From positions 193,068,001 to 193,132,000 of the forward strand of contig CM126208.1 in assembly GCA_052327205.1 (NCBI GenBank): DNA of 64,000 bases, written 5' to 3'. Both the position numbers and the translations under genes were made by a program. The stretch is from Somniosus microcephalus. Its lineage: Eukaryota. Under the pieces are notes generated by a model, which saw only the letters and a program-made list of their open reading frames with translations, ran no database searches and had not been told where the DNA came from. Positions 8,439 through 52,231 of the stretch are shown piece by piece (the stretch's first letter is position 1; each line of letters starts with the position of its first letter).

Positions 8439-9798
8439 GGCCTAGAAATTCAGTTGCTTGCGCCAGCCGGTAGCGCCTTAGGAGGAGGAGATGTTGGGCG
8501 CTAGGCGGCTAGCGGCCGGGCGCAGCGCGATCTGCGCCTCTCCCCAACTTCACTAGAGATTTAGCGTCGGCGCAAAGTCTTTGCGCGCGCTCAGCTGCGC
8601 GCGCAGATCCTGACGTCATTTCATCGTGCAACGCCCTTTGTGCGCCCCAACCGGAACTTCAGTGGCGCCGCCCTTCTTTGCGCCTGGCACCCCCAGCGAC
8701 TGGTAGAGGGGAACGGTCCCCAGTCGCTGCGGGGTGCGGGGGGCGCTATTTAAAGGGGACTCCTCCTGCATTATAAGTGACAGCCATTTTGTGCCAATCC
8801 TTCTGTGTGAGAGACAAAGGCAGAGAGCTTTCTGCTTTGACTCAGCGCTCGCACAGGTACTTCTGGCTTCAGGCCAGAGCTTTGCACTTGGATTTCACTT
8901 TCAGTGCCATAGCCTTGAGTCGCCACATATACTGTAATGGGGGCTACAATGGGTGGAAACGTTGGCTTTCTGCATTGCATTCAAAGGGATCAGAGACGCC
9001 GTGAGAGAGTGCCAGTCATGGCCAGACGGAGAAGGGCCAACAGGTGTCGGCACAGGAGGCCTTACCCACCCAGGGTATACCGCCAGCAGTTCTCATATCT
9101 GAACATGTCTGAGGAGCAGTGTGTTCGGAGGCTGCTATTCAGAAGGGAGGTGGCCACTGAGATCTACCACCTGCTTCGCAGAAATCTGCAGCCACAGCTG
9201 AGGAGCAGGACGTCTCTGTCGGTGGCAGTGAAGGTGACAGTGGCTCTCAACTTCTATGCCACCGGCTCCTTCCAATCCGCTACTGGGGACATTGCCAACA
9301 TCTCCCAGTTCGCGGTACATTGCTGCATCCGACAGGTGAACAATGCCCTTTTCAGAAGGAGACGTCAGACATCTCCTTCCCCATGACCCTGGACAAGCAG
9401 CAAGAGCGTACAATGGGATTTGGAAGAATAGCGGGCTTCCCCATGGTCCAGGGCGTAGAACTGATGAACCAGCATTGGTCAGGCCTTGCTTCAGGGCTGC
9501 AGTGCATGGCAGTCAGAGAAGTCCACCCTCCCCCTTTAAGAGCTGACCGGCGCCAGAGTGTCTGCCGTCAAGCAGCAACTCGCCGCACCTGCGCTGCGCC
9601 CGCCCTCGGGGGTATCGCCCCGGACCGCCGGCTTAGCGCCTAATGATAGTCGTGCATCGCCTGTTTTAGCGCAGCAGCAACCTCTTGGGGCGATGCGACT
9701 GAATATCGGTGAAGGTGGCGCGAACTTGCGCCAGGCGCAAACTTTAGCGGCCGCCCGACTGTAGCGCCCCGAACGTGGCTATACTGAATTTCTAGGCC
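8439..9798 (+). mobile_element. Harbinger internal-deletion derivative (element A)
   Basis: Perfect 16-bp TIRs GGCCTAGAAATTCAGT and TSD TCA/TCA. The 5' part of the transposase is joined at about 9455 to a right end homologous to 24540-24867. Confidence 0.92.
8937..9455 (+). pseudogene. Truncated HARBI1-like Harbinger transposase
   Basis: VKVTVALNFYATGSFQ...ISQFAVHCCIRQV, then a frameshift, then GFGRIAGFPMVQG; stops before the first catalytic Asp. Confidence 0.9.
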
Positions 9799-13265: not shown

Positions 13266-13554
13266 TGATGTGCCTCAATAATTCCGAGACTCGATGTTAG
13301 CGAAACAAAACAAGGCTTTTATTAACTTAGAAGGTAACACGTAGTGGAGAGAGGTATCTTCCATCCGGAGGGCTGCAGTACTGGATATGAGGCCAGACTG
13401 AGCTTGCTTACATAGGGGCCAGGTATGGGTGGAGCCCTACACACAACACATTCCAATATACAATACAATGGTGAGGAAACGGAACTGGGGGAAGGGAAAT
13501 GAAACTGAAACCGACCACAGTCACAGGCAGTGATGAATGGGATATTTCATCACA
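13266..13554 (-). mobile_element. Solo LTR (289 bp)
   Basis: TG...CA termini and 5-bp TSD AGGTC/AGATC. Removing it restores the Penelope ORF (RILRSTLNGM). AATAAA on - strand. Confidence 0.8.
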
Positions 13555-15511
13555 AGATCCACGCTCAACGGCATGTGCCGCCACATGAACAATGTCGACC
13601 TTTCTCTTCAGCAGCACCGATGCACTCTATTTCAAAGCTGTCCGGGTCCACAGTTCCATTTCATCCTTCGACTCATCCGACGCTTCAACAAAAAACTTTT
13701 TTTCTTCCTTTCTGATGTCAAGGATCGCAAGCTTCATCAACTCTTGGACACTAACGCCCCTTCAGAACCTTCTTCCCCGTTACTTTCCTCTGATCCCATC
13801 CCTTCTTCCAATCTCACCCCCTGTCGTGTTTTCACTATCCCCTCTGACCTTCCCCTCTCTGACCCCGAACGATCAGTCCTCAGCAAAGGCCTGAGCTTCA
13901 TCCCCTTACGCCCCCATCTGAATGAATTTCGAGCTCGGCATGATGCTGAGCTCTTCTTCCATCGCCTTCGTCTCCGTGCCCACTTCTCTGGCCAGGAGTC
14001 TAACACTTTAACAGTTTCCAGTTTCCTGACCCCAACCATCTCCTTTTCACGATGGACATCCAATCCCTCTACACCTCCATCCTCCACCAGGACGGCCTTT
14101 GGGTGCTCTGTTTCTTCCTTGAACAGAGGCCCACCCAGTCCCCATCCACTACCACCATCCTCCGCCTGGCTGAACTTGTTCTCACATTCAACAACTTCTC
14201 CTTTGACTCCACTCCCTCCAAATTAAAGGTGTTGCTATGGGAACCCCCATGGGCCCTAGCTATGCCTGCCTGTTCATGGGATATGTGGAACATTCTTTGT
14301 TCCAGTCCTACTCAGGTCCCCTCCATCACCTCTTTTTCCAGTACATCGATGACTGACTGTATTGGTGCCATTTCCTGCTCTCGCCCTGAACTAGGTAAGT
14401 TCATTCACTTTACCTCCAATTTCCACCCTTCCCTCACCTTCACATGGTCCATCTCCGACTCTTCCCTTCCCTTCCTTGACTTCTCCGTCTTCATTTCTGG
14501 CGATCGGTTTTCGACAAACATCCACTACAAGCCCACCGACTCCCACAGCTACCTGGACTACACTTCCTCCCACCCCGCTTCCTGTAAGGACTCTATTCCA
14601 TTCTCCCAGTTTCTCCATCTCCGCTGCGTCTTTTCTGACGATGCCACCTTCCATACCAGTGCTTCCGACATGTCTTCCTTTTTCTTCAACCGAGGATTCC
14701 CCTCTACTGTGGTTGACATGGCCCTTGACCGTGTCCGTTCTATTTCCCGCACTTCTGCTCTCACCCCTTCCCCTCACTCCCAGAACCACGATAGGGTTCC
14801 CCTTGTCCTCACCTTTCACCCCACTAGCCTCCACATTCAACGGATCATCCTCCGCCATTTCCGCCACCTCCAACGTGATCCTACCACCAAACACATCTTC
14901 CCCTCACCTCCCCTTTCAGCATTCCGAAGGGACCACTCCCTCCGCGACACCCTGGTCCACTCCTCAAATCACCCCCAACAGCCCTTCTCCTACACCTGGC
15001 ACCTTCCCGTGCAAGCGCAGGAGATGCAACACATGCCCTTTTACCTCCTCCCTTCCCACTGTCCAGGGCCACAAACACCCCTTCCAGGTGAAACAGCGAT
15101 TTACTTGTACATCTTCCAATTTAATATACTATTGTGGCAGAGCCACTGAGGGAATCTGAACAACTGTACATAATTCCCTTTAATGATGTGTTAGCTACAG
15201 ACTAAATCTGTACCATTGTATATACTGTTTGCATGTACAGTGTGCGGCCCCTTTAAGAACGCGGGCAAACGCAATGACGTCATGCCGCTAATCACGTGAT
15301 CACCCAAACACGGGAAAAAGGTGATGACGTCATGACGCCATCCACGGGACCGCCCAAGCAGTCCTCGTGGAGCCTCCAACCTGTTAAGACCTGTATTCAT
15401 AGTTCTCTTGCATCAATCTGTTTAAACTCGTTAGTTTGACATTAAAAACCTTTTTGATTGATTGCCTGTGTCGAACTCAATCTCTAGATAGGAATTTGAC
15501 CATTCCTACAT

Positions 15512-15524
15512 TGGTGACCCCGAC
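15512..15524 (+). promoter_or_regulatory. Primer binding site, tRNA-Trp
   Basis: TGGTGACCCCGAC 1 nt downstream of the 5' LTR, complementary to the tRNA-Trp 3' end. Confidence 0.85.
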
Positions 15525-15557
15525 TTTTGTGAACGGATTTCGCAAAAGGAATGCAGC

Positions 15558-18500
15558 ATGGAGGCAAATGCCGTTTCCTTGAAGCTGCCGCAGTTCTGGG
15601 AGCAACAAGCAACCTCATGGTTCATCCAAGTTGAAGCCCAGTTCGCCCTGAGAGGCATCATTGAGGATCAGACCCGATACTTATACGTGGTCTCCGCACT
15701 CGATGGCTCTACCGCCTCGTGGATCGTCAGTCTTCTCGGGAATCCCCCAACTGACAGCAAGTATGAGACCCTCAAGGCGCGGTTGCTACAGGTTTTCGGG
15801 CTCACAAAATCAGAGTGCGCCCGTCGGCTGCTCGCTATGCCCGGGCTCGGGGACTCCAAACCTTCCGAGCTGATGAGCCAAATGCTCACACTCCTCGGCT
15901 CCGAACCAGAATGCTTTCTCTTCAGAGAGTTATTCCTCAGCCAATTACCGGAGCAAGTGCAAGCGGCCTTGGCGAGATCCGAGGTCGAAGACTGCGCAGC
16001 GCTCGCTGCCGAGGCAGACAAAATATTCGCAGTTACGCAACAGTACTGCGCTGCCATGAGGCGCCCATCCCCCACAGACGCCGCCCCAGCTCCTCAGCCC
16101 ACGGGGCTGTGCTTCTACCACACGTGGTTTGGCGTGAAGGCGAGATGTTGTCGCCCTCCCTGCAGCTTCTCTCAAAAAAAAAACAACAACTCCGTCCAAT
16201 GCAGAACGGGTCTAACGGGTGCCCCGCGGCCGCGATGGCAATGCAGGCAAGCTGCTCTTCATCACAGATACCCTCTCCGGTTGTCGGTTCCTGTGCGACA
16301 CCGGAGCACAGTGCAGCATTCTACCAGCGTCAGCTCTGGATGTACAGGCCGGGAAGCACGGCCTCCCCCTCGAAGCGGCTAATGGTGGAGCTATTCGGAT
16401 CTTCGGCAGACGGCGGGTCTAGGTGTGCTTCGGCGACCAGCGGCTTTTCTGGGAATTCGTTATGGCCAAGGTTTCGCAAGCCATTCTCGGTGCAGATTTC
16501 CTGTGCGCCAACGGCCTCCTGGTCGATGTAAGGAACCGGCGGCTGATCAACGCGGCCACGTTTCACTCTATCATTTGCCACCATAGTAACACCATGTCGC
16601 GCACCGTCTCCTGCGCTTTCCCGACTCCGAATGAGTTCGCTCGCCTGCTAGGCGAATTTCCAGACCTGACCAGGCCCACGTTCTCCTCCGCGGCCACGAA
16701 GCATGGTGTGGAACACCACATCACCACCACCGGCCCCCCGGTCCACGTGCGGGCCTGCCGCCTTGAACCTGGCAAGCTAGCGGTCGCGAAGATGGAGTTC
16801 GCTACAATGGAACGCTTAGGGATTATTCGCAGGCCGAATAGTCCCTGGTCTTCACCTCTTCACATCGTTCCAAAACCTGGCGGAGGATGGCGGCCCTGCG
16901 GCGACTATCGGCGCCTAAACGCCGCCACCACTCCTGATCGATACCCGATCCCCCACATTCAGGATTTCTCTGCCCATTTGGCAGGAAACAATTTCTTCTC
17001 CAAGGTCGACCTCGTCCGGGGCTACCACCAGGTCCCGGTGCACCCGCAGGACATCCAGAAGACCGCAGTCATCACCCCATTCGGCCTTTTTGAATTTCTG
17101 CGCATGCCTTTCGGCTTAAAGAACGCTGCCCAGGCTTTCCAACGCCTGATGTATTCCGTGCTGCGGGACCTCAACTTCATCTTCATCAATCTGGATGACA
17201 TTTTGGTCGCCAGCCCCACCAAAGAGGAGCATCTTTGCCATCTGCGCACCCTTTTTCAACGCCTCAGCCAACACGGCCTGATTATCAACCCGGCTAAGTG
17301 CCAGTTTGGCCTGCGACAAATCGATTTCCTGGGGCATCGCATCACCGCAGAGGGAGCAGTTCCCTTGCAGGCGAAGGTGGAGGCGGTGATACACTTCCCA
17401 CACCCGCAGAACAGAAAGGCTCTGCAAGAATTCCTAGGCATGGTGAACTTCTTACCACCGTTTCGTGCCTAGGGCAGCACTGCTCATGCAGCCCCTGTAC
17501 GAGGCCCTCAAGAGCAAGTCCAGCAAGGATCCGGTGGGCTGGACAGTTGACATGGACCGGGCATTCACCGACACCAAGAGCGCCTTGGCCAACGCGACCA
17601 TGCTGGTGCACCCGCTACCAGGAGCCACCATCGCCCTCACCACCGACGCGTCCGATTACGCAATCGGCGCCATTCAGGGGCAGTGGGTAAACGGGACGTG
17701 GCAGCCGTTGGCATTCTTCAGCCGTCAACTGTGGCGTAATGAGCGGGCGTACAGTACTTTCGGCAGGGAGTTGCTAGCCCTTTTTCTGGCCATCCGCCAT
17801 TTCCGGTTCTTGTTGGAAGGCCGTCCTTTCACCGCTTTCGTCAACCATAAGCCACTGACTTTTGCCATGGCCAAGACCGCCGAACCGTGGTCACCTCGAC
17901 AACAACGTCAGCTGACATACATCTCCGAATTTACCACAGATATTCAGCACGTGGCCAGTAAAGACAACCTGGTGGCAGATTGCCTCTCCCGCGCGACCGT
18001 GCATGCGGTCCAGCTGGGCATCGACTACGCCCTCATGGCAGCAGACCAAGTCTCAGACCCAGAAGTGCAGGCTTACCGCACCAACACCACTAGCCTCCAG
18101 TTGGCCGACGTCAGGTTCCATTCGGCTGGTACCACGTTGCTGTGTGACGTCTCTGTTAGGGACCCTCGCCCTATTGTGCCGGTCGCCTGGCGCCGCAAGG
18201 TGTTTGACGCCATACATGGGTTGTCACACCCAGGAATGAAGGCTTCTCAGAAGCTTATGTCATCTAAGTTCATTTGGTGGGGCATGCATAAAGATGTCCG
18301 TGACTGGGCCAACACCTGCGTGGTCTGCCAAAAGGCCAAGGTACAGCGCCACGTCAAGGCTCCATTGGCCACCTTTGCAGTTCCTGAGCGACGGTTTGAC
18401 CACGTTAAAGTGGACCTGGTAGGAGCACTTCCACCTTCCCATGGTTTTATGCACATCCTGATCATAGCAGATCACACCACCAGATGGCTGGAGGTGGTTC

Positions 18501-19374
18501 CCCTGTCATCTACTACATCGGCGGACGTGGCTAGGGTGTTCATCTCTTCATGGGTCGCCCATTTTGGAGTGCCTGCTGACATCTCTTCGGACCGGGAACC
18601 GCAGTTTTCCTCTGAACTCTGGAATGCGGTGGCTCAGCGACTCGGTGTCAAGTTACACCGCACCACAGCCTACCACCCACAAGCGAACGGTCTGTGCGAA
18701 CGTTTTCACAGATCACTTAAGGCCGCACTGAGGGCCAGCCTCCAAGACGCTGGATGGGCAGACAAGCTGTCGTGGGTCATGTTGGGCCTTCGCACGGCCC
18801 CCAAGGAAGATCTTCGCTCTTCCGCGGCAGAGCTCATTTATGGTCAGCCACTGCAAGTGCCAGAGGATTTCTTGCCAACACCAACGGAGCCATGGTCCGC
18901 CTCACGCCAGCTTATCAGTCACCAGGAAGCAGCCAGATGTTTCGCGCCGGTTCCCACATTGCATCACGGGTTTCAGGGCTCTCACGTTCCAGCGGAGCTG
19001 AACCAAGCTGACTACGTGTTCACCTGCCACGATGCTCACCAGGATCCACTCAAGCCCCCATACACTGGTCCTTTCCGCATGTTAGAGGCAGGAGACAAAA
19101 CCTTCAAGGTGGATGTCGGTGGTAAACCGGACCACATTTCGGTCGACCATTTGAAGCCGGCACACCTGGACCTCGACCGTCCCGTCGAGACTGCACAGCC
19201 ACCGAGACGAGGTCGGCCGCCCACCGTCGTCACGCCAGAACAAGTGCAACCACCCGCCAGTCCGCCCGCCGTCCAACAGCTTCCGCTTCGGGAATACAGG
19301 AGTCGTTCTGACAGGCTTGTCAGACCCCCTCACCGTTTGACTTTTTCCGTTAAAGACAATTCTGGGGGGGCGCA
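15558..19374 (+). pseudogene. gag-pol (Gag, protease, RT, RNase H, integrase) with a stop and frameshifts
   Basis: LKLPQFW gag start; CFYH...CRPPC; LCDTGA; LDDILV; TDASDYAIGA; HGLSHPG...CVVC; TTAYHPQANGLCER; PYTGPF. TAG at 16420-16422 and frameshift near 17455. Confidence 0.93.
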
Positions 19375-20194
19375 TGTGGCAGAGCCACTGAGGGACTCTG
19401 AACAACTGTACATAATTCCCTTTAACGATGTGTTAGCTACAGACTAAATCTGTACCATTGTATATACTGTTTGCATGTACAGTGTGCGGCCCCTTTAAGA
19501 GCGCGGGCAAACGCGATGACGTCATGCCGCTAATCACGTGATCACCCAAACGCGGGAAAAACGTGATGACGTCATGACGCCATCCACGGGACCGCCCAAG
19601 CAGTCCTCGTGGAGCCTCCAACCTGTTAAGACCTGTATTCATAGTTCTCTTGCATCAATCTGTTTAAACTCGTTAGTTTGACATTAAAAGCCTTTTTGAT
19701 TGATTGCCTGCGTCGAACTCAATCTCTAGATAGGAATTTGACCATACCTACACTGTATTCGCTGCTCACGATGCGGTCTCCTCTACATTGGGGAGACCAA
19801 ATGCAGATTGGGCGACCGCTTTGCGGAACACCTCCGTTCAGTCCGTAAGGGTGACCCTGAGCTTCCGGTCGCCTGTCACTTTAATTCTCCACTTCACTCC
19901 CACTCTGATCTCTCTGTCCTCGGCCTATTACATTGTTCTAATGAAGCTCAACGTAAGCTCGAGGAACAGCAGCTCATCTTTTGATTAGGCACTTTACAGC
20001 CTGCCGGACTCAACATTGAGTTCAACAATTTCAGATAATAATCCCTGCCCCCATTTTTCATGCAGTATGATTTTGCCATTCCCATTTGCAACATTTTCAC
20101 AGCATGTTCTTTCAATTCCTTCCTCCCCTCCTAAACCACACCCCCCCCACCTGTCTCTGCACCTGCTTAATATCTGTTACATTTCCAGCTTTTT

Positions 20195-20236: not shown

Positions 20237-20883
20237 TTTCTCTCTCCACGGATGCTCAAATCAAAAAATCAAATCAACTTTTATTGTCATTGTTAGTGCA
20301 CAAGTGCAGTACAACGAAATGTAGGCTTGCAGCTCCCAAGAGTATACATTTAGATTAAGACATTTAAACATTCAACATACATAGGCCTAGAAATTCAGTG
20401 GGTTGCGCCAGCCGCTAACGCCATAAAAGGGCTATATTTCCGGCGCTAGACACTTAGCGCCTGAACGCAGTCCGATCTGCGCCGATGCCCAAATTCAGTT
20501 GACATTTAGCGCCGGCGCAAAGTGTTTGCGCCCGCTCAGGTGCGCGCGCAGCTTATGACGTCATATCGTCGCGCAACGCTGTTTGTGCGCCCCAAACCGG
20601 AAATTCAGTGGCGCCCGCCCAATGTGGGCGTGGCGCTGCTAAGAACTGTGAGGTGGAACGCAAAAGAGGCCCTGTGGGCCTCAGGGAGCGCAAATTAAAG
20701 GGCACTTACACTGACCTATAAAGCCCAGCCATTTTGCTGCAATGACTTTACTGCTTTGGATTTCTGGACAGAGACCAAGGGACAAAGGTTACAGATTTGG
20801 GACAACATAGGAGAGGTATTTTTGGCTTCTGGCCAGTGCTTTGACATTTGATTCATTGTGATTTATCTGTTCTCAACTTTATT

Positions 20884-22029
20884 ATGGGGGCTGTATGGGG
20901 GGCCAACCCTCAGTTGCAGCATTATGTGCGAAGGGCTCGCAGACGCTGTGAGAAAGGGCCAGCCATGCCGAGACGCAGAGGGGCCATCAGGCGTCGGCAA
21001 CGTAGGCCTTACCCACTCAGGCAATACCGGCAGCAGGTGTCCTATCTCACCATGACTGCGGCGCATTGTGTGAAGAGGCTGCGCTTCAGAAGGGAGGTGG
21101 TTGCAGAGATCTGCCAGCTGCTTCACACAGATCTGCGTCCACAGCTGATGTGCAGGACGTCTCTCTCGGTGGAAGTGAAGGTCACGGTGGCTCTGAACTT
21201 TTATGCAAGCGGCTCCTTCCAAGCCGTTGCTGCGGACATAGCGAACATCTCCCAGTTCGCCGCGCATCGCTGCATCCGGCAGGTCACCGATGCACTTTAC
21301 GCGAGGAGACACCAATTCATCTCCTTCCCCATGACCCGACAGAGGCAGGAGCAGTGTGCAGTCGGATTTGGCAGGATCGCGGGCTTCCCCATGGTGCAGG
21401 GCGCCATTGACTGCACGCATGTGGCTATGCGGGCACCTATCCACAATGCCGAGGATTACCGCAACCGGAAGGGCTACCATTCCCTAAATGTACAGCTGGT
21501 GTGTGACCACAGGCAGCGCATCCTAGCTGTCAATGCCCACTTCCCAGGAAGCAGCCACGATGCATTTATCCTGCGCCAGACTACTGTGGCTGACATGTTC
21601 CAGGCACAGCCTCCACCAAGGGGATGGCTTATCGGGGACAAGGGCTACCCTTTGTGTACATGGCTCATGACCCTGCTCCGCGCGCCCAGGACCCCAGCGG
21701 AGGAGGCATACAACGAAAGCCATCAAGCCACAAGGAACATCATCGAGCAAACGATAGGCGTCCTCAAGTAACGGTTCCGCTGCCTGGATCGTTCCGGAGG
21801 ATCTCTTCAGTATTCGCCGGATAGAGTCTCCCAGTTCGTCGTCGTGTGCTGCATGCTGCACAACCTGGCTATCCGCAGGACTCAGGCACTGCCACCTGGC
21901 ATTGCACCACCACCTCAGGAGGACGAGCAGGAGGAGGAGGAGGAGGAGGAGGAGGAGGAGGACCAGCCCAGGAGGGAGCGACAAGGGCCAAGGGCCGTCC
22001 GCCGGGGACTTATTGATCGACACTTCTAG
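20884..22029 (+). pseudogene. Harbinger DDE transposase with a single nonsense codon
   Basis: GAIDCTH, GSSHDA, GDKGY, IEQTIG and CCMLHN all in one frame; TAA at 21769-21771 replaces Q of LKQRF. Confidence 0.93.
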
Positions 22030-26808: not shown

Positions 26809-27952
26809 CTAGAAGCGACTTGCTATGAGCCTTTGACGGACGGCCCTTCCACTTTGTGCCTCCCTCCCACCTTGGTGCTGCTGATGATCATCCTCCTCAT
26901 CTTCCTCCTCCTCCTCCTCCTCTGCTGGTGCTCCAATGTCTGGTGGCATTGGCTGGGTCCTGAGGATTGCAAGGTTATGCAGCATACAGCACACAACAAC
27001 GAAGTGGAAGACTCGCTCAGGCGAGTACTGCAGGCCTCCTCCAGAATGGTCCAGACAGCGGAACCGTTGCTTGAGCACGCCGATTGTGTGCTCAATGATG
27101 TTCCTGGTAGCTTAATGGCTCTCGTTGTATCGTAGCTCAGCAGGGGTGCTGGGCGAACGGAGCGGTGTCATCAGCCAGGTACACAGAGGATATCCCTTGT
27201 CCCCGAGAAGCCAACCTCCTAGGTGATGCGGTGCCTGGAGAAGGTCTGCAACAGAAGTCTGGCGCAGGATGAAGGCATCGTGGCTGCTGCCTGGAAAGTG
27301 GGCATTGACAGCGAGTATCAGCGGTCTGTGGTCACAGACCAACTGGACGTTTAAGGAATGGAAGTCCTTTCGGTTGCGGAAATCCTCGGCATTCTCTTGC
27401 GGCGCCCGCAAAGCCACATGTGTGCAGTCAATGGCGCCCTGCACCATGGGGAAGCCCGCTATCATCGCAAAGCCCATTGCGCATTCTTGCTGCTTGGCCG
27501 GGGTCATGGAGAAAGAGATGTACTCTCGTCTCCTTTTAAAGAGGGCATTTGTTACCTGACGGATGCAGCAATGCACCGCCAACTGGGAGATATTGGTGAT
27601 GTCCCCAGTAGCTGATTGAAATGAGCCGGTGGCATAAAAGCTGAGAGCCACTATTATCTTCACTGCCACTGACAGAGACATCCTGCTCCTCAGTTGAGGC
27701 TGCAGATCTGGCTGAAGCAGATGGCAGAGCTCAGTGACCACCTGCTTGCTGAATCGCAGCCTTCGCAAACACTGCTCCTCAGACATATTAATGTAGGAGA
27801 ACTGTTGGCGAGAAACCCTGGGAGGGTAAGGTCTCCTGTACCGAGGCCTGTTGGCCCTCCTCCGTCTGGCCATGATTGCCACACTCTCTCCGTCTCTGTG
27901 CCCTCCGAATGTGATGGAGAAGGACGACGTTCCCATTCATTGCAGCCCCCAT
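26809..27952 (-). pseudogene. Harbinger DDE transposase of element B with a single nonsense codon
   Basis: GAIDCTH, GDKGY, IEHTIG and CCMLHN in one frame; TAA at 27112-27114 replaces Q of SHQATR; small frameshift in the N-terminal extension. Confidence 0.93.
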
Positions 27953-29990: not shown

Positions 29991-31962
29991 TGATGTCGTT
30001 TTCAGGAAAAATGTTTGTATTGCAAGATGATTTTACAATTGAGAAGACACCAGCGAGGCTATCACAACTGTTCCACAATCCATACCTTGTTTGATTCCCA
30101 TTTAAACTGAACCTTTAGTGCATCAGCACATCCAAAGAAACAGAAAATCCTTGTAACGGCCATTTAAGTCGTCAGTTCAGACACCGAAAGAAAGCTTATT
30201 GTTGCAGTAAAGCTATGCAGAACTCAGGAATAGCTTTATTGACCACATACAACACTTAAAATGAATTTGAAATAACAATTAAAAATTAAAATGCTTTACA
30301 TCTGCTCACCGCAATTCATGGGTAAAATTAAAGTATTTTCCCTTGATTCTTAAGTCTAAATGTCCTTTTTGGAGGCAATGAAACATTAAAAATGACTGAT
30401 TTCTGATTGGCAGTCAGTAATTCCAATGATTGCTTTTGCTACCAATTGTTGATTAATATAATTAATGCTGGCATGTGACCTTTTGTTGCGATCTTTACAG
30501 GTCTTGAAATACTTGCAGCCCCATTGTGACCAGACAAAACAATTTGTCTGTAGTACGGTGAGGATTGAAATGACATCTGCCTTATGATTTTACTTTCCAG
30601 TGTGCGGTACAAATAGAATACAGGATAAGAAGATGTGGGATACAATCTTTATCGCACTTGTGGCACTTGCTGTAGAATTTGTGTCTCCCAATCATGTCAA
30701 TTCACTTGCAAGATATCCAAGGTATCCTACCACTCCTGGATACGTGGCATCCATATCTCAAATAGTATTTCAAATTCCAATGTAATAGCCATCAAGAACA
30801 GCTTCTAAGAATTGATTTGTTCTCCATGGGTATTCTCAAATGTGCAACTGGAATCATTGTACGATGTCAACAAGAACCAAAGCATTTTCAAACTTGCACG
30901 GTTAAGTAAACTCCATTATAGTACTGTACGCAGGAAGTTTTAGACTATACTGGATCTTTATTTCAGTTCATTCATTAGAAGCTGTTCTTGTTGCTTAAGG
31001 AGAAATTTTCAATATAAATGTAGGAAGAGATTTTCCTTGAGTCTGTGCGCAGGTTCACTGGATGATGTGGGCACAGGAAATATTGTAAAATCAAGCAGTT
31101 GTGTGCACCTTGCTTGAAAGATGTGCAATATTTTGAAGGTATTTTGAAAATTATACAATGGAAAATCTACATTTGACGTGAACTCTTATTAAAGAAGTAA
31201 ATATTATTTTTAAATACTACTTCCCTAATATTACATATAACCTACTGAAGAGGTGAATCCCTACTTTAAGGTTAAGTTTTGTATAAAAATTAAACTCAAA
31301 TATCTGATCTCAGCCACAGCAGCTGTACGCTCCTGCAATTTGTCTCAGTGCAGTTTGGTTAAGGAAAGAAAAATAATTGACCAGGGCTCTGTTAAGTATG
31401 TGTATTGTATTGAACAATTAACACAAAGACTTAAACGTATAACTCAAACAGGTCTTTACTGGTTGGAGGTAGGGACTATACATAGGTCTTTACTTCATGC
31501 CCACAGGCGGGAACTGAGGGGAGATCAGTACCCACAGTACTATTTATACCCCTATGGCCAGGAGTGGTACTGCGTATCACTACGCCCAACAAGTAGTGCA
31601 GTCCTGTCCATAGGTTCAAAGTAGCACACATATTACATACACAACATTCCTCCCTTCCTAGCTTTACAGTCATCTCCCCATTTAACATAACGTAATAACA
31701 TATATACATATATAACTTCAGGTTTACATAACAGAATAACATAGATACATAGATAACTTCATGTCAAAACAGATCACAGATTCAGTCTCTGCGGAAAACA
31801 GTTCACAGATTCAATCTCTGTGGTGGAGTCGGTTCACGTTGCTGGAGTGACTCATTCAATAGTCCTTCCATGGATTTAACAGTTTGAACTTCCGAACTGA
31901 ATTGGCTCCGTTCGGAGGGACCACGTGTGTGATCTGGTAGAGGTAATAATGGTTCAGATGGG

Positions 31963-34161
31963 TCATCTTCTGTTTCGACTTTTCCTTTTCTGCTTCTTGG
32001 AGACTCTCTGGGCTCCACTGTCAGCTGCCAGCTGCATGCGCAGTTCCTCCTTCTCTCCCTCCTTTTTCCGTAGTAGAGCCACCTTCTCCCGATGTTCCGT
32101 AGACTTTCGGTGCTCCTCCATGATTTCTGTATGGTGGGAGTCGAAGTTACAAGTTGGGCAGGACAGGACATAGTAATATTCGGTGTCGTCCCGATCTAGG
32201 CCAGCGAGAGGGTCTTCTATTTCCTCCATACCCAGCTGGGCGTTAGCCAGCTTTTGTTCCAAGTCCAGACATCTTTCCTGAAGAGACTTCTTCATGCGTA
32301 CCTCTTCATCCAGCTTTTTCTGGGCTTTCAGCAAGTCGTTTACTAATGACCTCATTTGAGATTTTACTACTTCAACTTCTTTTGGAGATTGATTGATCGG
32401 ACTATTCAATCCCTCTACCGGAGCAGCTGTTTCAGCGGTCTGTTGTTCTACGTTGACGTGAGTCAGCGTACTTTTGGCATCCAAGGGCTGCTCTGTTGCA
32501 GTCATCTCAGTCTGTGTTGCCACCTCAGCTCTTCCAATAACCTTTGAGAGCTCCGAACCCCTTTCGTTTGAATATTGAAGTTCGTGTTCAAGTTTTTCCC
32601 ATTTCAGAGTCCTGTCCTTCAGCATATGCAGGAGTTGGCTGACCGTTAACTCCTCTGACATCAGACGTTTTGTGTGCTCCTGCTCCATTTTCTCCATCAG
32701 CTGCTTCTGTTGTCTTTCCAGATTCTCCAACTCTATATCAAAGAACTCTTTCGTTGCATTCAACTCTTGCTCACAACGGCGAAGCATTTGTTCTAATTGC
32801 TGTTGTAGTTTGAAATGGAGTTGAGTTCGAGCCCGGTGTCCCTCAGAAATGGGCACATCAGTAGACTTGCCAGACTCAGAATCCACAGTTAAACTATGTT
32901 GTTGTTGCTCAGTGGAATTCTGTGCTGAAACTTTGTCTTTTGCACCCGAGTTGGGCTTACCATCATCCGTTCCAGAGTCTGGGCCGACTATCTTCACCGA
33001 GTTCTCACTCGTTATTGTTTGTAGGAAATGCCAGTCCATATTCATTTTCCTAATCCACTCCCGTCCTAGTAGTGGAGAACCTCCTTCAGATATCACATAT
33101 AAGTCCATTATTTGACTGTCTTCGCCCTTGTGGACCACTGCAACCTCTATTTTCCCGATGGGGTACACTCTTTGCCCCGTGTATGTTTTCAATATAATCC
33201 CCGTATCCTGTAGGGGAATATGTTGGAATAACTTTCCGTAATCTTTCTTATTTATGACTGTCAATGCCGATCCAGTGTCCAATTCCAGTTTTACTTGGAC
33301 TCCTTCTATCTGAAGAGTGACCCAAATTGTCTGGAGGTCTGCACCCTTACCAGCGTTGAGTACTCTTAAGCTAGCCAGTTCATTACAGCTTAAGCTAGCC
33401 AGTTCATTACTGCTAGCGTCTGAATCGGACTCCTGTTCGGTCACCTTGTGTACCTTTGCGTATTTTCCTTGCGGTGACTTCTTGTTGCTGGTCTTCTTCC
33501 CTGACCTGCATACTCTAGCTATATGTCCAAGCCTACCACAAGTTCTACATTCTTGGTTTTTAAACCAACACTGGTTCTGATCATGCGTTGTCTTTCCACA
33601 ACGATAACATTTGCCAGAACTCACACCCAATTTGTGTGCACTGAGCTCCGGTGACCGTAGCTGCATTACTGCCGTGCCTCTCGCTGCGGCTTCGTGTGCT
33701 GCTGCCATAGTGACTGCCTTCTCAAGCGTCAGCTCATTCTCCTCTAGCAGTCGCTTTTGTGTATCCTGTTTAAATAAACCACACACAAATTTGTCTCGAA
33801 GTGCCTCTGTCAGTCCCGTTCCAAACTGGCAATATTTCGCTAATTTACGCAATTCCAGCAAATAATCAGCATTGCTTTCATGCTGTAGCTGCCTTCTGTC
33901 GTAAAATTTAAATCGTTCCGCTAGCATCAGCGGCGTGGGGTTTAGATGATCTTTCAGGACAGTAACAATCTCATCGAACGTCTTATCCGCCGGTTCATCT
34001 GGTGATAACAGGTGTTTCAATTGCCCGTATGTCTTCGCACCCATTAAATTTAATAATGTTAGAGCTTTATCTTGGTCATGAATTTTATTGGCCTTACAAT
34101 AATTTTTTACTCTTTCAACATATATGGCCCAATCTTCGAGGTCACTATCAAAGGTGCTCAT
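31963..34161 (-). CDS. Gag-protease fusion with STK10/SLK-like coiled coil, optineurin-like segment and U1-type zinc finger (732 aa)
   Basis: Uninterrupted ORF. Mag gag ([20 protein letters not shown]), two CCHC knuckles aa185-218, LDTGS and LLGREW protease motifs, then non-pol coiled-coil segments. Confidence 0.9.
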
Positions 34162-34747
34162 ATTCCCGTGTTTAGGTATTGTAGATTTGCAATTTCTCAG
34201 ATTTTATTTTGTTTACTTGTTATCAAAGATGGCGGCTTCCCGCTCTTGCCGTCGTCCTCCGCCCACAAAATGGCGGTTTTCCCGCGCTTGGCGGTCTTCA
34301 CCCGTCCCCCGACGCCGTCTCCCTTCAGCCCCCGAGTGCGGCCCTTATCTTTGGTTCCGATCGCTGGCCCACGCTGCGCCTCGCACTTGAAGCGGCTCCC
34401 GGCCTCTGGCTCACCCGCTCGCGCGGCTCTTGCTCGCTCCCTCCCGGGCTCTGGCTTACCCGCTCGCGCGTTTCACCGCGGCTCTTATCAGGGATTGCGA
34501 TCGCCCTTATCTTCTCCAACTTCCCCAGCCCTGTCTTTGCAGCCGACACTGCACGGCTTACCCCACCACCTAGGTTGAACAAGGAAACTGCAGAAAGACT
34601 TCTGTCAGTCGCTGGAAGCTGTCAGGATGTTTGCTGCACTCCAGTGCTCAGTCGCTGATGGAGGCTTCAGAGTCCTAAAGCCTGTCGCTTCTAGTGGGGT
34701 GGTGATGTTTGAAACCTCTCTTCAACTGCCGCAGGGTAAGAACCTGA

Positions 34748-34757
34748 CTCGTCGCCA
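34748..34757 (-). promoter_or_regulatory. Primer binding site, tRNA-Ser(GCU)
   Basis: TGGCGACGAG 1 nt after the 5' LTR. Confidence 0.8.
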
Positions 34758-35357
34758 GTGTTAAGTATGTGTATTGTATTGAACAATTAACACAAAGACT
34801 TAAACGTATAACTCAAACAGGTCTTTACTGGTTGGAGGTAGGGACTATACATAGGTCTTTACTTCATGCCCACAGGCGGGAACTGAGGGGAGATCAGTAC
34901 CCACAGTACTATTTATACCCCTATGGCCAGGAGTGGTACTGCGTATCACTACGCCCAACAAGTAGTGCAGTCCTGTCCATAGGTTCAAAGTAGCACACAT
35001 ATTACATACACAACAGGCTCCATCTCCTAATCACCAAACGGCAATCCTGTTCAAAATACTTGGGGAAAGGATCAGCCACGATACCTCTAATGGTCAAAAC
35101 GCATGCTGATACACAACATCTAACCTTGCCTATGAATAATGGCCACTTGGACGAGGTACCTGTTACCCACTGAATTGTATCCCAGCACATACTCATGACA
35201 CACATTAAAGAGATATGGAGAAAGAAAGGAGGAAGAAGGGAAAAATTAGTGGAAAAAGGAGGACAAAATAGAATTGTAGAATTGACTGAAACTGTATGTC
35301 TCAGTTAATAGTTTTTATATTTTATACTTTCATGCACAGGACAGTTTTCTGTATAGT

Positions 35358-41985: not shown

Positions 41986-42681
41986 AGGGGATTTAGATAA
42001 TCAGTTTAAGGGGGATCACCAAATGAGGTGCAGAGCATGAATGAGCTGGAGCAGGTGGTAGTGATGGTGGCAGCAAAGACCGACCAGGAACCCAATACTC
42101 AAAGGACAAACTCACATCCTTCCTCAGCTGCAGTGCCCAGGGATTCGGGTCTCACAGGGCTTGTATTTATAAGGAAAATGCTATCTGAGCACCAGTAGTT
42201 CTTGCTGTCATTGAAGAATGAATCAAAAACACCGCATGATCTGGTGGCAACTATGGAGGAGTCCACTATCCACTTATTTACAGTTGTACAGTTCAACATA
42301 GAGTGCATTGCAACTTCAAGGCCATTTGCAACAGACTCCTGAGTGAAAAAGATCCGTCCATCTTAAAGGCACATTCGCCAACCCTTATTTTCTAGAACGA
42401 CCATTTCATTTCCAACCTTCACTTTTTCCACACATCATTGCTAACTAAGTATACACTCTACTCTTCCCATTACTGCTTGCTCAAGTCTTGCCAATCTGCT
42501 TTCTATTCCACCCATATTGAGACTGTCCTGGTAACAATTAGCAATGACATTCTGGATGATGAGGTTGTGGGAGGCTGTTCCCCATGATACTTCTGCTACC
42601 TTTGACACATGGTGTGGAGATGCCGGAGTTGGACTCGGGTGGACAAATGTCTGTAGGTGTCCTCCAACAGCTTTATTTGAA

Positions 42682-42720
42682 ATCACAAGCTTTCGGAGCG
42701 CTGCTCCTTCGTCAGGTGAA
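42682..42720 (-). ncRNA. Minimal hammerhead ribozyme (inverted copy)
   Basis: Exact reverse complement of 43914-43952. Confidence 0.75.
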
Positions 42721-42783
42721 GTGGAGAAATGCATAAAGACACAGCTTATATAGTCAGAGAATCATGTTAGATGTTTACAGGTA

Positions 42784-43567
42784 CAGGTTTACAGGACACC
42801 TACAGACACTGAAAGACGCCCTTGTAAGAACGGGATATGACGCTCGACTCGTCAATCGACAGTTCCGACGGGCCACAGCGAAAAATCGCATAGACCTCCT
42901 CAGAAGACAAACACGGGACACAACCAACAGAGTACCATTCGTCATCCAGTACTTCCCCGGAGCGGAGAAACTACGCCATGTTCTTCGCAGCCTTCAACAT
43001 GTCATTGATGATGATGAACACCTCGCTAAGGCCATCCCCACGCCTCCACTACTTGCTTTCAAACAGCCACCTAACCTCAAACAGACCATCGTTCGCAGCA
43101 AATTACCCAGCTTTCAGGAGAACAGCGACCACGACACCACACAACCCTGCCACAGCAACCTCTGCAAGACATGCCAGATCATCAACACAGATACCATCAT
43201 CACACGTGAGGACACCACCCACCAGGTACATGGTACATACTCATGTGACTCGGCCAACGTTGTCTACCTCATACGTTGCAGGAAAGGATGCCCCGGAGCA
43301 TGGTACATCGGCGAGACCATGCAGACACTGCAACAACGGATGAACGGACACCACGCAACAATCACCAGGCAGGAGTGTTCCCTCCCAGTCGGGGAACACT
43401 TCAGCAGTCAAGGACATTCAGCCTCCGATCTTCGGGTAAGCATTTTCCAAGGCGGCCTTCGAGACACACGACAACGCAAAATCGTCGAGCAGAAACTGAT
43501 AGCCAAGTTCCGCACCCATGAGGACGGCCTCAACCGAGATCTTGGGTTCATGTCACGCTACATGTAA
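42784..43567 (+). pseudogene. Penelope RT thumb / GIY-YIG endonuclease C-terminal fragment
   Basis: Open frame ending GLNRDLGFMSRYM; N-terminus missing. Confidence 0.85.
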
Positions 43568-43913
43568 CCCCACCTGATGCAGGGTCATCCAGACTCGAGT
43601 TGACATTGGCTTGTTCTCTCTACACAGATGCGGCCAGACCTGCTGTGATTTCCAGCAAAAAAAATGTTTTTTGTCTGTTTTTTTGTTTTTCATACAGACC
43701 CCAGCATCTGCAATATTTGATCCCTTGTGACCCCACCTCATTGTTCTTTGATGTAATGTTTTCCTGACTGACCTGTTTGGACACCATTCACACCTTTGAT
43801 TGCTGTGATTATCTCTCTGCCGAGGTGTGATAAATGGCAGTTGGAAACATTACCTGTAAACATCTGACATGATTCTCTGACTATATAAGCTGTGTCTTTA
43901 TGCATTTCTCCAC

Positions 43914-43952
43914 TTCACCTGACGAAGGAGCAGCGCTCCGAAAGCTTGTGAT
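43914..43952 (+). ncRNA. Minimal type I hammerhead ribozyme
   Basis: TCAC-CTGACGA-A-GGAGC/GCTCC-GAAA-GCTT-GTGA; stem I TCAC/GTGA; palindromic stem III. Confidence 0.8.
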
Positions 43953-44847
43953 TTCAAATAAAGCTGCTGGACTATAACCTGGTGTTGTGTGACTTCTTAC
44001 CTTTGACACAGTTAACACTATCATGCCTGGTAGTGCATGACATGCATTTCTGGGTAGCGGATGACGGAAACCTCTGCTTAAAACAAGAGATTCATTTTAA
44101 TAACTAAACGATGCAGGAGCACTGTGTCTTTCCTCCCAGAACACCATGTTTATAAAGAATTGCATAGAATTTATAGCATAGAAACAGGCCATTCTGCCCA
44201 ACTGGTCTATGTCGGTGTTTATGCTCCAGATGAGTATCCTCCCACCTATCTGCATATCCTTATATTCCTTTCTCCTTCATGTACTTATCTAGCTTCACCT
44301 TAAAGGCATCTCTGCTATTTGCCCAACTATTCCTTTTGGCAGCAAGTTCTACATTCTAACCATTCTCTGGGTAAAGAAGTTTCTCCTGAATTCCTTATTG
44401 GCTTTATTATCTTATATTTATGGCCCCTAGTTTTGGACACCTCTGCAAGTGAAAACATCTTCTCTACGTCTACCCTATCAAACCGCTTCATAATTTTAAA
44501 GACCTCTATCAGTTCACCCCTCAGACTTTGCTTGAGAAAAGAGCCCACGACTGTTCTGTCTTTCCTGATAGTTATATCCTCTCAATTCTGGTATCATCCA
44601 TGTAAATCTTTTTTGCACCTTCTCCAGTGCCTCTATATCTTTTTTGTAATAGGGAGAGCAGAACTGTACACAATACTCCAAGTGTGGTCTAACCAAGCAT
44701 CTATACAAGCTTCACATTAGCTCCCTGCTTTATAATTCTATTCTTGAAATTAACCCGAGTGCTTTGTTTGCATTTTTATGGCCTTATTAACTTTTAGTGC
44801 TTTGTGGCTGTGTACCCCTAGATCCCTTTGCTCCTCTACCCCATTTA

Positions 44848-51039: not shown

Positions 51040-52231
51040 TCTGAGGTTTCATTCACTCAAATCAGAGTCTGATGAGAGGTTCATGGACAGCACGTCCGGA
51101 AGGGGGATTTACTGCCTGCCTCCTCCCTTCCACCTCATCCTCCTCTTCTTCCTCTTCCTGTTACTTCTCTCCCTCTTCCTCCTCCTCTCCCTCATCCTCA
51201 TCCTGAGGTGATCCCGCAATCCCTGCTGGCAAGGGATGCACTCTCATGATTGCCAAGTTGTGCAGCATGCAGCAGACCACCACGAAATGGGACACCCACT
51301 CCGGCGAGTACTGGTGGGCTCTTCCTGAGTGGCCAAGGCAGCAGAACCATTGCTTCAGCAGGCCGATGGTCTGCTTGATGGTGTTCCTGGTGGTAGCATG
51401 GCTCTCATTATATGAGTGCTGGGCATGAGTGGTGGGGTTGCGGAGGGGAGTAATCAGCCAGGTGCAGAGCAGATAGCCCTTGTCTCCGAGCAGCCAATGT
51501 TGAGTTTCATGTGGTGGCTGGAAGAGTGGTGCAGGATGAAGACATTATGACTGCTGCCAGGATAGTGGGCATTGACCATCAGGATGCACTGGGCATGGTT
51601 GCATAACAACGGCATATTGCGTGAGTGGTAGCCTTTGCAGTCATGAAAGATCTCAGGATTGGTATTCAGCGCCCGCAAAGCCACGTGGGTGCAGTCGATG
51701 GTGCCCTGCACCATGGGGCAGCCCGCTGTCCTGTCAAAGCCACATGCAAGCTCCTCCTGGTTCTCTCTGTTCAGAGAGAAGAGAATGTAGCCCCTTCTCC
51801 TAGACTACAGAGCCATCTGTGACCTCCCGTATGCAGCAATGGATGGCAAACTGGGAGATGTTAGCTATGTCTGCTGCTGCAGACTGGAAGAATCTACTGG
51901 CGAAGAAATTGAGGACCATGGTGACCTTGACTGCCACTGGGAGAGCCGTGATCACCCTGCTCTGAGGCTGTAGGTCTGGTTGCAGGAGGTGGCAGAGTTC
52001 TGTGACCACCTCCTTGTTGAAGCGGAGCCTCCTAATTCACTGCTCCTCGCTTAAGTGGATATAAGAGAGGTGCTCTCTGAAAATGCTAGGTGGGTAAGGC
52101 CTCCTGTTGATATCCCTCCTGGCCCTCCTCCTCCCTCTGCAAGTATCTTCTCATCTTCTTCGCTGCCTCCGCTCCCTCTCCCAAAGTACTCGAGTGTGAG
52201 GGGGACTGCAAGTAGAGCCCCCATGACTATG
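51040..52231 (-). pseudogene. Decayed Harbinger transposase of element E
   Basis: VTELCHLLQPDL, VQGTIDCTHVALR, GSSH, GDKGY and CCMLHN remnants; ends approximate. Confidence 0.85.

Follow-up and report, generated by a model that had tools for sequence, protein, structure and literature searches.

The optineurin (OPTN)-like segment in the window, by which we mean the whole stretch of 64,000 nt analysed here, lies in a non-autonomous Ty3/Gypsy LTR retrotransposon, and there is practically no doubt that it was captured from an mRNA. The founder of this retrotransposon family very probably replaced its pol region with a captured circular RNA of host STK10, to judge from its junction sequences, and later members of the lineage gained and exchanged pieces of further host genes. 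The circular-RNA founder is the surprise of the family, together with the serial swapping of cargo. Our full explanation comprises this founder, serial capture, the spread of the window's subfamily (named D, and defined by its junction pattern and by the deletion of the LIR stretch of OPTN) and a coiled-coil role in cis for the OPTN piece. We lean towards this explanation as a whole with slightly better than even confidence; the capture, the spread and the recombination history are read from the copies themselves, whereas the cis role is what we infer.

The ORF that encodes the OPTN piece sits within an LTR element extending from 31390 to 35015 on the minus strand (Table 1). Paired LTRs, a target-site duplication (TSD), a primer-binding site (PBS), a polypurine tract and a Gag-protease frame, together with the missing pol, identify this element as a non-autonomous Ty3/Gypsy retrotransposon; no reverse transcriptase (RT), RNase H or integrase was detected in the ORF by Pfam. 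We take the PBS to be of the tRNA-Ser type and, from this site and the two zinc knuckles, presume that the element belongs to the Mag clade. The original prediction placed an OPTN-like segment at 32215..32658 on the minus strand, and this interval indeed corresponds to the stop-free aa 502-649 of the ORF that runs from 34161 to 31960, with a translation that agrees. Optineurin is present at this location, but the true extent of the piece is 32670-32218, so that it starts four codons earlier, and ends one codon earlier, than had been proposed.

Table 1. Features of the D element in the window. Positions are those of the window.
Feature	Position	Strand	Basis
5′ LTR, TG...CA, 257 nt	34759..35015	-	Sequence identical to 3′ LTR
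3′ LTR, 257 nt	31390..31646	-	LTR pair
5-bp TSD, GGCTC on +	35016..35020, twin 31385-31389		Flanking sequence
Primer-binding site TGGCGACGAG	34748..34757	-	Same as autonomous subfamily 2
Polypurine tract	31647..31659	-	Sequence
Single 732-aa ORF: Gag, protease and host cargo	31960..34161	-	ORF list, Pfam
Two CCHC zinc knuckles of Gag, aa 185-218	33508..33609	-	Pfam zf-CCHC below curated cut-off; motif visible
Aspartyl protease, DTG motif, aa 281-375	33037..33321	-	Pfam (weak)
Remnant of STK10 aa 400-478 (from the front of the circle), with an in-frame deletion	32845..33009	-	Sequence comparison
STK10 PKK coiled coil, approximately aa 616-676	32662..32844	-	Pfam PKK E 1.1e-7; shark STK10 best matches
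Optineurin aa 226-384, four exons of spliced mRNA	32218..32670	-	BLASTP, host exon alignment
Zinc finger of C2H2 (jaz) type with basic tail, derived from DNAJC21; highly divergent, all four zinc ligands retained	31981..32214	-	Homologue search
STK10 aa ~325-388 remnant (rear of the circle) and parent integrase-tail remnant, out of ORF frame in the window's subfamily	31803..31980	-	Sequence comparison

Several other features were noted in the window. A second, unrelated Gypsy-like element at 15133-19674 has LTRs that are 98% identical and gag/pol in several broken frames. Repeated transposase frames occur at 8919-9643, 20845-21771, 27112-27936 and 51161-51544 with ORFs nearby, some as long inverted pairs; we assume that these four frames are Harbinger-like and that the nearby ORFs are Myb-like. 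The frame at 42737-43567 lies between 121-nt inverted repeats at 42663-43971, and we take this frame and the one at 13537-15159 to be among Penelope-like RT and GIY-YIG-like frames.

The likeness to optineurin seen in the original prediction is borne out by homology. A homologue search with element aa 495-660 gave 21 matches among 625 candidates, every one of them a shark or ray optineurin (best E 5.9e-51), and BLASTP comparison with sawshark OPTN found 114 of 159 positions identical (72%), with element aa 498-648 corresponding to OPTN 226-384. The piece holds a 7-residue (21-nt) deletion relative to host OPTN. The OPTN gene of the same genome resides at G000:C17:85.87-85.91 Mb, and mapping onto its exons established that the piece equals four exons spread over 5.5 kb of the host gene, which in the window are joined end to end without introns. 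Three of these are 92%, 87% and 89% identical to the host exons at the nucleotide level, and the fourth reaches 81% because it carries the 21-nt deletion. As four exons are joined without introns, the source was a spliced mRNA, in keeping with the capture that had been suggested. In the host gene itself, two frame-shifting 1-nt insertions in short homopolymers near C17 85884780 and 85885358, relative to the aligned element copies, are probably assembly errors.

The piece had also been said to lack the TBK1-binding, LIR and UBAN parts of optineurin. Solved OPTN structures map to aa 29-106, 144-178, 504-591 and 636-667 of the sawshark protein, stretches that we take to be the TBK1-binding, leucine-zipper, UBAN and zinc-finger parts, respectively, and the window piece lies outside all of them. 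An LIR-type motif at approximately aa 184-189 of sawshark OPTN is located upstream of the captured stretch, and the piece starts at a 9-nt overlap where OPTN 131-225, including the LIR, was deleted. By these positions the TBK1-binding, LIR and UBAN parts are therefore absent, as claimed. Unlike vertebrate optineurin, and without the features of a functional OPTN-type autophagy receptor (the N-terminal TBK1-binding coil, LIR, UBAN and zinc finger), the element's version is restricted to OPTN 226-384, carries the 7-residue deletion and is fused into a retroelement polyprotein. The last 40 residues of the piece (window 32335-32218) overlap sawshark OPTN 345-462, a stretch matching NEMO in PDB 3CL3; the NEMO part in that structure presumably binds viral activators. 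A PDB search with the cargo gave no matches, the 'longer' homologue search was likewise empty (0 of 96), and a structure prediction combining the window fragment with sawshark OPTN 220-400 scored 0.18 (mark 0.34).

Members of D are numerous and similar to one another in structure. The D-specific junction pattern is matched 4,307 times in the 6.45-Gb genome, against no match for the reversed control. Thirty D copies taken in chromosome order include two that are truncated; in 22 of the remaining 28 the frame stays open as far as the common stop, and a stop or frameshift within the OPTN piece was seen in none of the 28. Twenty copies were tried for LTR comparison and 16 could be measured, of which 15 have LTR pairs that differ at 0-5 of 257 sites; distinct TSDs were likewise present in 15 of the 16. 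D is a young family that has spread recently to approximately 4,300 copies. Because pol is missing and the copies are flanked by TSDs, this Gag-protease-cargo element is likely to have multiplied using enzymes supplied in trans.

Transcription was assessed with two RNA runs, X7 and X8, whose species label also holds the element and may be that of a sister species. Reads from both runs cover all 30 bins of the element. In X7, 34,052 reads of 16.65 million records were placed on the element, of which 5,719 reached at least 99%, and first mates lie mostly on the plus strand, which is the element's sense under the usual stranded protocol; X8 reads run in both directions. The allele of the window's sub-lineage accounts for 17-19% of the plus-direction X7 reads at two sites, and the rest derive from other sub-lineages, older types or the host. 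At the RNA level, then, the family is transcribed.

The origin of the family is preserved in relatives of the founder type, which carry STK10 alone as cargo. A search with STK10 aa 479-616 gave at least 98 matches (150 of 191 candidates scored), approximately 75 of which cover the whole query without an intron. In founder-type copies the STK10 sequence runs from aa 388 to 704 and then from aa 291 to 388. The 704-to-291 join connects the GT donor at C8:167191933 of the host STK10 gene, which is on C8, exactly to the AG acceptor at C8:167198433 of an exon 6.5 kb upstream, with 98-100% nucleotide identity, and this back-splice join is exact in all 18 founder-type copies examined. The insert amounts to one turn of a circle, with 1,245 nt and five exons, in 14 of the 18 (two inner exon borders were off by one base in the comparison of window and host STK10 by dN/dS; independent checks again gave 1,245 nt). 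There is no stop across the back-splice join. OPTN has since overwritten the join in the window copy, where no more than the permuted STK10 order survives; in relatives this order places aa 388 onward ahead of OPTN and aa 315-388 after it. An intronless copy of STK10 aa 753-977 at C3:354658271-354658948 (L104), 97% identical to sawshark, has no match to the LTR family and is a separate processed retrocopy.

The autonomous parent was recognized from a junction pattern that is matched 5,355 times; one copy examined by Pfam has RT, RNase H and integrase in the order PR-RT-RH-IN. A founder-type copy is mostly 95-97% identical in nucleotides to parent subfamily 1. Sequence resembling one STK10 site occurs twice in the parent, first after the protease and again in the integrase tail, and the overlaps measure 12 and 8 nt. 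An 'empty' precursor, in which the two element flanks are joined directly, was predicted, but all 20 parental loci inspected continue into pol, and a double switch on the full parent is therefore preferred. An autonomous Gypsy element very probably shed its RT and RNase H domains and the greater part of its integrase as RT switched onto the STK10 circle and back. Specifically, RT may have left the integrase tail for the circle, run out of template after one turn and re-entered the element after the protease. Forced copy choice would probably account best for the exact one-turn length: RNase H would destroy the circle behind RT, so that the template ends at the point of entry.

A linear scrambled transcript, arising by trans-splicing or from a tandem exon duplication that has since been lost, could also account for the permuted STK10 order, and alternatives of this kind to circular RNA are noted in the accessible part of Dong et al. 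(2016; PMC4897178). A linear transcript with repeated exons would yield the same junction, and given the likeness of one STK10 site to both parent sites, the two ends of the insert could be set by nothing more than overlap. In RNA reads, transcripts of founder-type copies would look like the host back-splice. However, each of the five circle exons is single in 100 kb of the host STK10 locus in this assembly, and founder copies have no sequence from outside these five exons. The entry and exit points, moreover, coincide after exactly one turn. We give the linear transcript very little credence and retain a captured circular RNA as the very probable source of the founder's insert.

Subsequent captures can be followed in relatives that carry OPTN. 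OPTN aa 1-223 as a query yielded 4,941 first-look candidates, a figure not to be read as a copy number, and the ten OPTN-bearing loci examined are longer elements with OPTN 131-384 or more and an intact LIR motif. In older copies six OPTN exons are joined without introns, five of them 93-99% identical in nucleotides to the host and the exon with the 21-nt deletion 85-87% identical. The cargo ahead of OPTN in relatives has shark STK10 as its best matches, and some subfamilies carry a jaz-type C2H2 finger behind OPTN. Matches to this finger region were named DNAJC21 in six of the eight cases looked up; atlas search matches for the finger were generic. The zinc-finger exon of host DNAJC21 was not found in a genome search that was swamped by element copies; one upstream exon was located, and the next 20 kb (500 N) do not hold the finger exon. 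PF21884 matches lie on C17, where a zuotin homology domain in two exons at C17:58361008-58366411 (L068, L069) probably belongs to DNAJC2 rather than DNAJC21. In the window (32214-32040) and its relatives, the finger has changed stepwise over at least five sub-lineages, losing basic residues and keeping C, C, H and H.

The slot occupied by OPTN is not reserved for it. Among 25 copies picked by their zinc finger, 12 have OPTN (with the LIR motif in all 12), two have STK10 only and 11 have a different coiled coil in the same slot. The replacement is 218 aa long, unrelated to OPTN and matches Pfam Myosin_tail_1 (E 4.8e-16); our guess is that it is cingulin-like 1. The STK10 back-splice join is intact in 10 of the 11 copies of this sister subfamily (L105, L107-L109, L200-L202, L205, L206, L211 and L215; for example L109:739-1392).

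Junctions in the family show raw overlap lengths of 12, 8, 4, 9, 13 and 9 nt, plus another of 8 nt, one of the 9-nt overlaps being that at the LIR deletion of D. The reading frame is kept at 13 of the 14 traced junctions, the exception being the end of D, which reads the basic tail of DNAJC21 and then a stop. After the founding event, template switches at such short overlaps brought in spliced OPTN mRNA that covered aa 131-384 or more and still had the LIR, as well as the DNAJC21 zinc finger and, in the sister line, the myosin-tail-like coil. D then lost the LIR stretch and acquired the gag-protease region of a second autonomous subfamily. The gag-protease of D is approximately 92% identical in nucleotides to this second subfamily and approximately 82% to the direct relatives of its cargo; D is therefore a recombinant. 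No autonomous copy with D's own LTR was present among 20 fetched, and a helper for D is suggested by the shared PBS and LTR ends.

We examined substitution patterns in the cargo. Between the window piece and host OPTN, dN is 0.087 and dS 0.194 (NG86). A codon model fitted to eight copies gave omega values of 0.49 for the OPTN piece (p=0.007), 0.35 for gag and 0.51 for protease, and neutral simulations with transition and CpG bias gave p=0.008-0.044 for the OPTN piece. The piece is under moderate purifying selection, as measured with a tree model that ignores the evident recombination between subfamilies; because the codon model excludes stops, the value of 0.49 goes beyond mere stop avoidance. 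Older copies compared with the host over the same stretch have omega values of 0.5-2.8 on few changes, and the purifying signal therefore lies mainly on the window's branch. Amino-acid-changing differences from host OPTN number 28.5 in the window piece and 7-16 in older copies. For the LIR stretch, omega is 0.38 and not significant in six copies picked by their zinc finger; the low omega of copies chosen for their likeness to OPTN is biased and was disregarded.

The STK10 pieces have omega values of 1.2 and 2.2 among copies, which are not significant, and of 0.41-0.42 between window and host (NG86). The zinc finger has dN 0.63 at dS 0.33, and all four of its zinc ligands are among the 13 invariant sites of 37 (p=0.011). 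Positive selection on the finger was not established (omega 1.7-1.9, p=0.11-0.14; site model p=0.06), so that adaptive change in the DNAJC21 finger is possible and not significant.

The nucleic-acid evidence leaves evenly poised the proposal that the OPTN piece is an interchangeable, in-frame coiled-coil arm of the Gag-protease polyprotein that is selected in cis. It may be kept as a folded extension that serves as a spacer or an oligomerising arm in the place once held by Pol, in which case other long coiled coils could replace it and no OPTN-specific decoy would be involved; the unrelated coil in the slot of the sister subfamily points to such interchangeability rather than to a decoy. Being codon-repetitive, coiled-coil mRNAs could be captured in frame unduly often even with no selection. 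The cargo might instead be useless, with selection acting only for an open frame (through RNA stability, long 3′ UTR decay or packaging length) and against misfolding. The interchangeable identity of the cargo is in line with this, as are omega values of at least 1 among copies for the STK10 pieces, the repeated tolerance of large in-frame deletions and the early frame end in D, which left its spread unharmed. Less readily accommodated are an OPTN omega below what stop avoidance requires and the invariance of four zinc ligands in a finger that has otherwise diverged so far. The pure passenger considered in the original prediction is thus somewhat disfavoured by the constraint over eight copies and by a frame that stays open, and we think it unlikely.

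The original prediction had also raised the idea of a decoy or dominant negative, whereby a released OPTN coiled coil would pair with host OPTN and blunt autophagy or TBK1/interferon signalling against element particles. Purifying selection on the OPTN piece, loss of the LIR in the youngest subfamily and transcription of the family would all suit such a role, and restriction of L1, Alu and Ty1 by autophagy is reported in the available part of PMC4982230. According to the accessible text of a preprint (bioRxiv 10.1101/2024.05.31.596776), a truncated human OPTN (217-577) may form oligomers with the endogenous protein; the ubiquitin-binding domain was still present in this construct, however, and its effect was to promote autophagy. 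We found no positive support for the decoy. The founder multiplied with STK10 alone as cargo, the OPTN slot is filled by the unrelated coil or by STK10 alone in 13 of the 25 finger-picked copies, and subfamilies that retain the LIR are abundant too, both among the first-look candidates and among the finger-picked copies with OPTN. The window piece is further from host OPTN than are older copies, which is opposite to what a mimic would need, and a benefit conferred in trans would be common to all elements and hence weakly selected. A decoy is in our view very unlikely, and we favour the coiled-coil arm acting in cis.

LTR-mediated chimeric retrocopies of animals have been described previously (Tan et al., 2016; PMC5131818). 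To the extent that the accessible text of that report allows comparison, the shark family has in common with them the replacement of the internal ORF between LTRs by spliced host mRNA, short overlaps at switch points, several parental genes and repeated non-autonomous retroposition; its OPTN and STK10 pieces are intronless (four to six exons and five exons, respectively), and the host cargo replaces part of the internal ORF with overlaps and was retroposed further. The retrocopies of Tan et al. occur as single or few copies, and 'circular' is absent from the main text of their paper as available, whereas the shark family has thousands of copies, at least four serially captured host genes, an in-frame fusion to Gag-protease and cargo on which selection was measured. 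Maize Bs1 and HERV-K/FAM8A1 likewise are LTR elements in which fragments of one to three cellular genes replace part of the element's own genes; no circular-RNA origin is described for them in the accessible part of the same source, and the scale and serial cargo swapping are larger in the shark (PMC5131818).

Copies derived from circular RNA are represented by the mouse circRFWD2 pseudogenes, for which an exact genomic back-splice junction, tens of copies, no poly(A) and an LTR association are given in the accessible part of Dong et al. (2016; PMC4897178), who termed the mechanism mysterious. Founder-type relatives in the shark similarly have a junction of downstream donor to upstream acceptor in 18 of 18 copies and no exon duplication within 100 kb of the host STK10 locus in this assembly. 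The shark founder differs from circRFWD2 as described there in that both of its junctions with the parental pol can be read, that the insert makes exactly one turn in frame with Gag, and that the lineage kept capturing genes. The openly accessible papers searched, supplements aside, contained no description of the shark family or of one-turn capture of a circular RNA by an LTR element.

A broader interpretation, which we offer tentatively as a possibility, is that this Gypsy lineage is a protein-shuffling platform of about ten thousand copies. It would have been founded by one in-frame turn of a circular RNA through RNase H-forced switching, and would sample host coiled coils (STK10, OPTN and the myosin-tail-like coil) together with a zinc finger; selection would act on these domains to the benefit of the element itself, adaptive change in the finger included. 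If the less likely decoy reading were true, the OPTN piece would be relevant to counter-defence by retroelements. In the shark, thousands of transcribed OPTN, STK10 and DNAJC21 fragments are a source of distorted annotation and expression estimates for these genes. The family offers a case of host-gene capture in a vertebrate germ line at thousands of copies, with readable intermediates and measurable selection on the stolen domains. As the parent, both switch points and the exact one-turn insert are preserved, it also presents a concrete route, testable in vitro, by which circular RNA may enter genomes.
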